From: a virus
Strand: one strand, 5' to 3'
IMG/VR virus record: IMGVR_UViG_3300049216_000067
DNA length: 64,000 nucleotides
The stretch's first letter is position 1, and the number at the start of each line of letters is the position of its first letter. Both the position numbers and the translations under genes were made by a program. Below are positions 52,146 through 52,253 of the stretch, piece after piece. A model generated the notes under the pieces. It did no database searches, was not told the DNA's origin, and saw only the letters and a program-made list of their open reading frames with translations.

Positions 52146-52193
52146 CTCCTAAATGTAATTGAATGATATTAAAAATCAGACAATTACACAAGG
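52146..52193 (-). promoter_or_regulatory. Hairpin sequestering the RBS of the Pth2-like gene
   Basis: CCT-TG-TGTAATTG ... CAATTACA-TTT-AGG(AG), with inner TGAT/ATCA pairing. Confidence 0.7.
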
Positions 52194-52253
52194 TGGTCCT
52201 CGTGCATAATGTAGGTTCTACGTGTCAGGAATCTTCTAGATCTTAGTAGCCAT
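52176..52253 (-). CDS. Putative regulatory leader peptide with two in-frame UAG codons and RGPP arrest-like motif
   Basis: ATG GCT ACT AAG ATC TAG AAG ATT CCT GAC ACG TAG AAC CTA CAT TAT GCA CGA GGA CCA CCT TGT GTA ATT GTC TGA; ATG coupled to upstream stop (TAATG). Confidence 0.65.

Follow-up and report, generated by a model that had tools for sequence, protein, structure and literature searches.

The window analysed here comprises 64 kb of a single phage contig of 82,472 bp (IMGVR_UViG_3300049216_000067), and the genes of interest lie on its (-) strand, to which the window coordinates below refer. Between an amber suppressor tRNA gene and a 242-aa gene with a PTH2-like domain (51411–52139) there is a short open reading frame (ORF) of 25 codons at 52176–52253, considered here as a putative regulatory leader of the 242-aa gene. 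In translation it reads MATKI-UAG-KIPDT-UAG-NLHYARGPPCVIV-UGA, with a first in-frame stop at 52236–52238 and a second (UAG2) at 52218–52220. After the second UAG the frame continues N L H Y A R G P P C V I V before UGA 52178–52176. The codons CGA GGA CCA CCU at 52191–52202 encode Arg-Gly-Pro-Pro (RGPP), 4 codons ahead of this UGA, and six-frame translation of the 82.5-kb contig finds RGPP once, namely in the leader. The Shine–Dalgarno (SD) sequence of the 242-aa gene, AGGAG (52146–52150), stands 6 nt before its ATG at 52139. The tRNA (52581–52657), found by ARAGORN and matching the Rfam tRNA family at 60.5 bits, has anticodon CUA and an encoded CCA. Between tRNA and leader is a 103-aa coiled-coil-like ORF (52253–52564), identified by translation, whose stop codon TAA (52255–52253) overlaps the leader ATG (52253–52251) as TAATG. 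The coordinates in an initial annotation of this region are all correct; the leader ATG is at 52253, the UAGs at 52238 and 52220, RGPP at 52202–52191, the UGA at 52178, a predicted hairpin at 52193–52148 and the main ATG at 52139.

RGPP and RAPP cores are known to prevent the peptide bond from forming when Pro-tRNA occupies the A site; they are resistant to EF-P, accept a range of upstream sequences and are the most avoided tetrapeptides (PMC10951233, PMC12992588, PMC10987492). RGPP is the strongest EF-P-resistant RAPP-like arrest core (PMC12992588), and HGPP and RDPP are permissive or related cores (PMC12992588, PMC10987492). The leader resembles RAPP-like arrest peptides in carrying an R/H-A/G-P-P core near its C-terminus. 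It has no hydrophobic segment, and the export or membrane signal and the Sec/YidC target of such peptides are both lacking.

The initial annotation had also proposed that the last RGPP codon forms part of a hairpin that masks the SD. RNAfold does pair CCU 52193–52191 with AGG 52150–52148, and GUGUAAUUG (52189–52181) with CAAUUACAU (52161–52153), around an inner stem of UGAU with AUCA. The predicted hairpin (52148–52193), to which RNAfold and the covariation described below both point, has an energy of -14.0 kcal/mol in isolation. The partition function adds a second, distal anti-SD candidate, UCCUGA (52225–52230), which lies over the Ile-Pro-Asp codons between the two UAGs, can pair with UUAGGA and is the dominant partner in long contexts; the pair G52149:C52228 has a probability of 0.91–0.98 in contexts of 121–201 nt. 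An SD accessible in the naked RNA, which would have counted against the masking proposal, was not found. Unpaired probabilities over AGGAG are 0.19, 0.11, 0.11, 0.38 and 0.44, so that the AGG is 0.11–0.19 unpaired and the SD is mostly paired. Among 51 genes, SD occlusion ranks 5–7 with 140–180 nt of context and is mid-range with 85–120 nt. In the window, the Pro-Pro segment tested for duplex formation with the SD gave a z of only -0.7. An Rfam search at E up to 10 over 51900–52800 returned the tRNA only, which places the leader and hairpin in no known RNA family. An intrinsic terminator or attenuator was rejected, there being no U-tract after the hairpin in the window or in relatives. The window by itself is weak evidence, and its pattern is not beyond chance; across relatives, as judged from their sequences, the pattern is far beyond chance.

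The comparison rests on 66 homologues of the 242-aa protein, the loci of which (L numbers below) were gathered by identity look-ups and a profile scan of viral contigs. Some 24 distinct loci, with proteins 29–86% identical, have the same leader plan upstream of the homologue. A start codon, in many cases preceded by a good SD, comes first, followed by one or two stops in frame, 4–13 codons, x-G/D-P-P and a hairpin; the 5' arm of the hairpin begins at or just after the Pro codons, and the SD lies in its 3' arm. The motif is mostly RGPP, with HGPP in L030 and L031, HDPP in L032 and RDPP in L052. In 20 leaders, all six Arg codons (CGA/CGG/CGT/CGC/AGA/AGG) are used, together with four Gly codons (GGA/GGT/GGG/GGC) and four Pro codons (CCA/CCG/CCT/CCC). 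Leaders differ in length by multiples of three, and L001 has an insertion of 33 nt that keeps the frame. These comparisons indicate that the RGPP frame is under selection at the amino-acid level. Between the last stop and the motif, 19 of the 20 leaders contain no ATG, GTG or TTG, so that synthesis of the selected peptide would require readthrough of the stops. From the end of the Pro-Pro codons to the ATG there are 49–59 nt in each of the 19 leaders measured, which leaves room for a stalled 70S ribosome beside an initiating 30S subunit. In L063 and L067 a stop follows RGPP directly.

The suggestion in the initial annotation that two serial UAGs make the response roughly quadratic in readthrough describes an option and not a general rule, because leaders of relatives contain either one stop or two, and about a third of the leaders contain just one. 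A steeper response from two serial stops is nevertheless plausible. Two other readings of the leader were dropped. A +1-frame mini-ORF starting from TTATG is not conserved in its residues, and L037 lacks the ATG (TAC for TAT). A minigene resembling lambda bar, formed by MATKI-stop, does not fit relatives in which the first segment varies from 5 to ~30 codons.

In one phage (IMGVR_UViG_3300044796_000056; L015:3740-4420 and L037:3380-3500) the leader appears to be interrupted by the insertion of a 183-aa gene. Here MATKI-TAG-KVPDT-TAG-NFCYARG continues in frame into the 183-aa gene, which ends with TAG; next come NYIRGPPSL-TAA, then the hairpin and finally the PTH2-like gene. Although split, the leader retains a one-stop sensor.

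The relation of the leader to the main ORF raises the possibility that readthrough yields a longer isoform of the PTH2-like protein, with the leader as its N-terminal part. The leader ATG and ATG 52139 share a frame and are 114 nt apart, and in L002 and L032 the frame is open from the motif into the main ORF. In the window, UGA 52178 and a further UAG intervene, in L028 and L040 the two are out of frame, and everywhere the main ORF has its own SD and AUG. Of the explanations considered, this is the least probable.

Covariation in the hairpin was assessed for ten alignable sequences against a stated hairpin structure. Overall, 91% of cells are paired, compared with 30–57% when the partners are slid, and six pairs have changed on both sides, a number reached in 0/500 shuffles. 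Distant members carry unrelated hairpin sequences of the same design: a 15-bp helix ending UAAGGA in L034, CCUCUUC with GAAGAGG in L039, and CCC with GGG in L042. As in RAPP-like systems, an SD-sequestering stem-loop is therefore predicted between the upstream ORF (uORF) and its target, the sequestration in the window being modest.

The geometry of a stalled ribosome agrees with what the initial annotation had claimed. With CCA 52196 in the P site and a reach of +14, a ribosome stalled on Pro-Pro would cover 52193–52182 and hence the 5' arm, and one terminating with UAG 52220 in the A site would reach only to ~52209 and miss it. The arrangement of ErmCL is thus reproduced, with the stall footprint over the 5' arm and the SD in the 3' arm. 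When the ribosome was modelled as an unpaired stretch in 19 leaders, the SD region was unpaired with a mean probability of 0.30 in naked RNA, 0.34 if the ribosome stood at the last sensor stop and 0.52 if it was stalled at Pro-Pro; the stalled value exceeded the terminating value in 16/19 leaders (Wilcoxon p = 6e-4). In the window, exactly 9 codons (27 nt) separate the second UAG from the P-site Pro codon downstream of it (52196–52223), and a ribosome queued behind an arrested one could thus have UAG2 in its A site. This may be coincidence, because the spacing varies in relatives (4–13 codons).

We propose, with a probability of about 0.72, that the leader is a translational sensor of stop-codon readthrough which acts through ribosome arrest and gates the PTH2-like gene. 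The proposal draws, by sequence and comparison, on the anatomy of the locus, selection on the peptide frame, the match of stop and anticodon set out below, the covarying hairpin and the PTH2 fold. In the window, initiation at the leader would be coupled to translation of the upstream ORF through the TAATG; in relatives, an SD belonging to the leader itself would serve. By default, ribosomes would terminate at UAG 52238 or UAG 52220, and the SD would stay paired with CCU 52193–52191 or with UCCUGA 52230–52225. When tRNA(CUA), whose gene lies 330 nt upstream, wins over RF1 at both UAGs, the ribosome would reach Arg-Gly-Pro-Pro and arrest, its P site holding CCA and its A site CCU. The stalled footprint would keep the 5' arm of the hairpin single-stranded, so that the SD and AUG 52139, ~55 nt downstream, become accessible to a 30S subunit. 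The PTH2-like protein would therefore be made only when suppression is active. A long-lived arrest could amplify rare readthrough events. Acting with the adjacent transfer-messenger RNA (tmRNA), the product may rescue ribosomes or recycle peptidyl-tRNA once readthrough has occurred; alternatively, it may feed back on the suppressor. We infer leader-ATG initiation, readthrough and this role of the product, and, by analogy with known arrest peptides, the sequence of readthrough, arrest and SD unmasking. The interpretation given in the initial annotation is supported overall, in that each of its elements recurs in diverged relatives as predicted.

Several observations weigh against this proposal. 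In the window, the fold of the 151-nt region has a z of only -1.14, just three SD bases are paired with the CCU, and the leader's own SD is weak (AAGG, 12 nt upstream of its ATG). Deep branches of the family have CGPP, IGPP or KPP, in which the arrest activity with C, I or K as first residue is uncertain. In L002 and L032 the frame runs from the motif into the main ORF without a stop. L034 and L044/45 have a leader, yet no suppressor tRNA within the DNA fetched. In L052 the structure is weak and the naked SD is 0.74–0.83 unpaired. The initial annotation had suggested folding the window with and without a footprint constraint, and RNAfold did not discriminate between the states: SD accessibility was 0.40 in naked RNA, 0.53 with termination at UAG2 and 0.43 with the stall. 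The window and its nearest relatives are exceptions to the family-wide result. The distal anti-SD UCCUGA accounts for this, because it is covered by a terminating ribosome and exposed behind a stalled one, and the stalled state re-pairs the SD with it. This failure marks a real weakness in the model or in this particular copy of the leader.

Within the window, modelled SD exposure is greatest, at 0.63, for termination at UGA 52178. This agrees with a simpler coupling, dependent on readthrough and requiring no true arrest, in which ribosomes past the stops would translate as far as the leader's own UGA and unwind the hairpin on the way, loading would follow at the downstream AUG, and Pro-Pro would merely slow them. 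Also in its favour, the leader of L040 ends in ATGA, overlapping the main start, and those of L002 and L032 run into the main ORF. Such coupling leaves unexplained both the selection for R/H-G/D-P-P, with a tail that is free to vary or absent (L063, L067), and the occurrence of the most avoided, strongest arrest tetrapeptide only in the leader; it is considered unlikely.

A further line of evidence comes from the type of stop. Orthologous tRNAs occupy the same position in relatives, with anticodon CTA or TCA. The sensor stops are never TAA. TAG sensor stops lie beside tRNA-CTA in at least 13 loci and TGA sensor stops beside tRNA-TCA in L030 and L103; L029 has two TGAs in its leader, and its tRNA is off the contig. 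A maximum-likelihood tree of the downstream protein shows leaders of the two stop types, TGA and TAG, intermixed in one well-supported clade (L030, L029, {window, L035}, {L028, L103}), in which L103 is sister to L028 with support 96/95. The intermixing implies that both leader stops and the anticodon have switched together at least twice. In the L052 group, tRNA and leader are both present, and the syntenic L061 and L066 lack both. In L031 (2294-2370) and L048 (111-185) the tRNA in the suppressor position has a non-canonical anticodon arm, with a 4-bp stem and an 8-nt loop containing CUCUAAA or UUCUAA; ARAGORN gives the anticodon as 'ct', and the leaders still have TAG stops.

RF1 reads UAG and RF2 reads UGA. 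Readthrough is a competition between tRNA and release factor, and the stop type would fit either player; the leader might then sense release-factor activity, such as depletion or inhibition of RF1 or RF2 in infection, and not the phage tRNA as such. The co-occurrence of leader and tRNA, with both absent from L061 and L066 compared with L052, and the joint switching of anticodon and stop type make this highly unlikely.

A 17-mer, TTCCTGACACGTAGAAC (52215–52231), is identical in L001, L002, L015 and L028. The identity is at the nucleotide level although the L002 and L015 proteins are only 41–51% identical, and it exceeds what the PDT peptide would need; the 17-mer takes in UCCUGA, the distal anti-SD, as well as the second UAG and its surroundings. 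The conserved stretch could therefore be seen as a non-coding signal in DNA or RNA, such as a promoter, a site for a binding protein or a small RNA, to which the ORF and its stops are incidental, and the 17-mer has a loose likeness to promoters of single-subunit RNA polymerases. A repeated phage promoter was rejected, as no second copy of the 17-mer occurs in the window or elsewhere in the contig, even when 3–4 mismatches are allowed. The T4-type TATAAATA is not found near the leader, and a promoter and terminator scan gave nothing on the (-) strand there. The uniqueness of the 17-mer in the genome at 3 mismatches, the lack of an Rfam match, the retention of the peptide plan with other nucleotides in deeper relatives and the tracking of the tRNA by stop type together make a non-coding signal very improbable. 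None of these rivals explains the selection on the motif at the amino-acid level together with the match of stop and anticodon. Searches by DNA added little: an exact 15-mer search gave mostly chance matches, a metagenome scan by DNA pattern returned only the contig already known, and a TGA-type DNA pattern had no match in viral contigs.

The product of the gated gene was modelled by AlphaFold2 (pLDDT 91) as a helical N-terminal domain followed by a C-terminal domain (~residues 123–235) with a predicted PTH2 (peptidyl-tRNA hydrolase) fold. Foldseek against the PDB retrieved the PTH2 structures 3erj, 2zv3, 1q7s, 1wn2, 1xty and 1rlk with probability 1.0 and target TM-scores of 0.72–0.78, and VIA-align to 1wn2 gave Z 13.0 and an rmsd of 2.3 over 109 residues. 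On these models, the C-terminal domain has the alpha/beta fold of PF01981. The relationship is not visible by sequence: there is no Pfam match even at E = 10, and the family profile retrieves no PTH2 entry of the PDB. Residues Q134, Q141, Q144, H147, E205, D207 and T213 are invariant in homologues. The N-terminal helical domain has no convincing structural match in VIA-align (Z at most 5.7). In L063:3040-3500 and L067:3040-3500 the two domains are separate ORFs, and in L048:470-900 only the PTH2-like domain is left; the leader is present in all three.

Directly after the PTH2-like gene, and overlapping its 3' end, is a permuted two-piece tmRNA (51075–51454), which matches Rfam RF04321 at 114.5 bits, above the threshold of 47, and RF01850 (beta_tmRNA) at 91.3 bits. 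ARAGORN misses it in the window and finds a tmRNA at the same place in many relatives. The beta_tmRNA match hints at a betaproteobacterial-type host.

In many other phages, homologues consisting of the PTH2-like domain only have a TAG 2–8 codons after the ORF's own ATG. Examples are MTTLIPDT-TAG in L064, with the IPDT-TAG of the window's leader, and MK-TAG, MT-TAG and MTH-TAG elsewhere. Three cultured phages have such a TAG at codon 3–4, and this explains why the coding sequence (CDS) is missing, truncated or split in GenBank. In Serratia phage BF (L105:1480-1800, KY630187) no CDS is annotated at the PTH2-like ORF; in Acinetobacter phage ME3 (L106) there is a truncated CDS, ME3_195, with tRNA-CTA 450 nt upstream; and in Salmonella phage Arash (L027) the annotation is split into gp85c and gp84c. 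The Arash tRNA annotated as tRNA-Phe (~3810-3884 of L027) has anticodon CTA by ARAGORN.

When 26 domain-only loci were scanned for tRNAs and their gating was classified by eye, 11 TAG-gated loci had tRNA-CTA in the locus and four did not; of the loci that were not gated, one had tRNA-CTA and ten did not. Expression of the family would thus be tied to suppression in two ways. One would be the direct in-ORF stop, and the other the arrest leader of the window's clade. In two jumbo-phage loci (L068:5004-5095, L093:7157-7231) an ungated PTH2-like homologue occurs with a tRNA of anticodon TTA (ochre type) in place of CTA.

The predicted output module, an arrest peptide with an SD hairpin, is already known in kind. 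SecM-secA, ApdA/ApdP-secDF, RQH and the Streptomyces RAPP/RGPP uORFs (PMC10951233, PMC10987492, PMC12992588) likewise have a short uORF ending in R/H-A/G-P-P. As in RAPP-type systems, a stem-loop would hide the SD of the next gene and a stalled ribosome would be expected to open it. Unlike these, the 25-codon, phage-encoded leader has no signal peptide and no Sec/YidC target, and the input would be the reaching of the motif across one or two stops, compared with a pulling force that releases arrest. ErmCL-ermC shares the stall footprint over the 5' arm of an SD-sequestering hairpin; its inducer is a drug in the exit tunnel, not nonsense suppression. As in prfB (RF2), an early in-frame stop would gauge the decoding activity at that stop. 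The prfB mechanism is a +1 frameshift which senses the release factor, whereas here readthrough by a dedicated tRNA would be sensed, and the output, again unlike prfB, would be arrest and SD unmasking, or the direct in-ORF TAG of other phages.

Together with prfB, the conceptually nearest relative is a synthetic switch in which the tna leader carries an amber codon, TAG (Liu, Qi, Yanofsky & Arkin, 2011; described in PMC6412442). From that description it is engineered, with a transcriptional output (rut site) and a single stop, whereas the present element is natural and its output would be translational. In the AMD1 C-tail (PMC13025110), too, ribosomes that pass a stop are arrested by their own peptide. 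That system is eukaryotic, and its arrest limits readthrough products and blocks the mRNA; here a downstream cistron would be activated. Recoded phages (10.1101/2021.08.26.457843, PMC9523058) resemble this one in that a phage-encoded suppressor tRNA reads UAG or UGA, and differ in their use of code 15 or 4.

The genome of the window is not recoded. Under code 11 the long ORFs are intact, TAG terminates 6/57 of them, and reading TAG as sense joined no long same-strand ORFs; the in-frame stops in many conserved, mostly late genes that mark code 15 or 4 are lacking. Functional-looking in-frame stops occur only in the leader.

No publication was found in the literature on input by nonsense suppression through a phage tRNA. 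Suppressor tRNAs with targets stated to be unknown occur in many standard-code phages, XacN1 (PMC5852040) and phage Summit (PMC9022506) among them, and the present element offers a concrete, conserved target and a logic for such tRNAs. It also accounts for the unannotated or truncated homologues of cultured jumbo phages in GenBank. A wider suggestion, put forward tentatively and thought doubtful, is that suppressor tRNA, stop-gated leader, PTH2-like enzyme and tmRNA form one self-regulating circuit by which the phage deliberately raises readthrough. Raised readthrough would then be a take-over or counter-defence measure, with the leader or the in-ORF TAG as its gauge. The hydrolase would be made in proportion to readthrough, recycling peptidyl-tRNAs and stalled ribosomes or trimming suppressor activity in a homeostatic feedback. 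If this were true, the 'orphan' suppressor tRNAs of standard-code phages would gain a first defined target and purpose. The leader element itself would extend regulation by arrest peptides from the sensing of export or drugs to that of decoding fidelity, and would give engineered amber-codon switches a natural counterpart.

The remaining features concern the neighbourhood. Genes for PhoH, an exonuclease and an endolysin lie nearby, and relatives carry gp32, gp59 and gp33-like genes; this gene content points to a T4-like myovirus. A DNA search of a phage collection gave no close cultured relative. The 103-aa ORF has no family above threshold in profile searches, and its homologues lie between tRNA and leader in L001, L002, L015, L030 and L103. 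Ordinary genes terminated by TAG are found at 6924–7703, 14005–15075, 15521–16093, 41123–41863 and 58287–59768, all on the (-) strand except 41123–41863 (+). The suppressor tRNA would lengthen the products of 14005–15075 and 15521–16093 by 28 and 25 residues, respectively.
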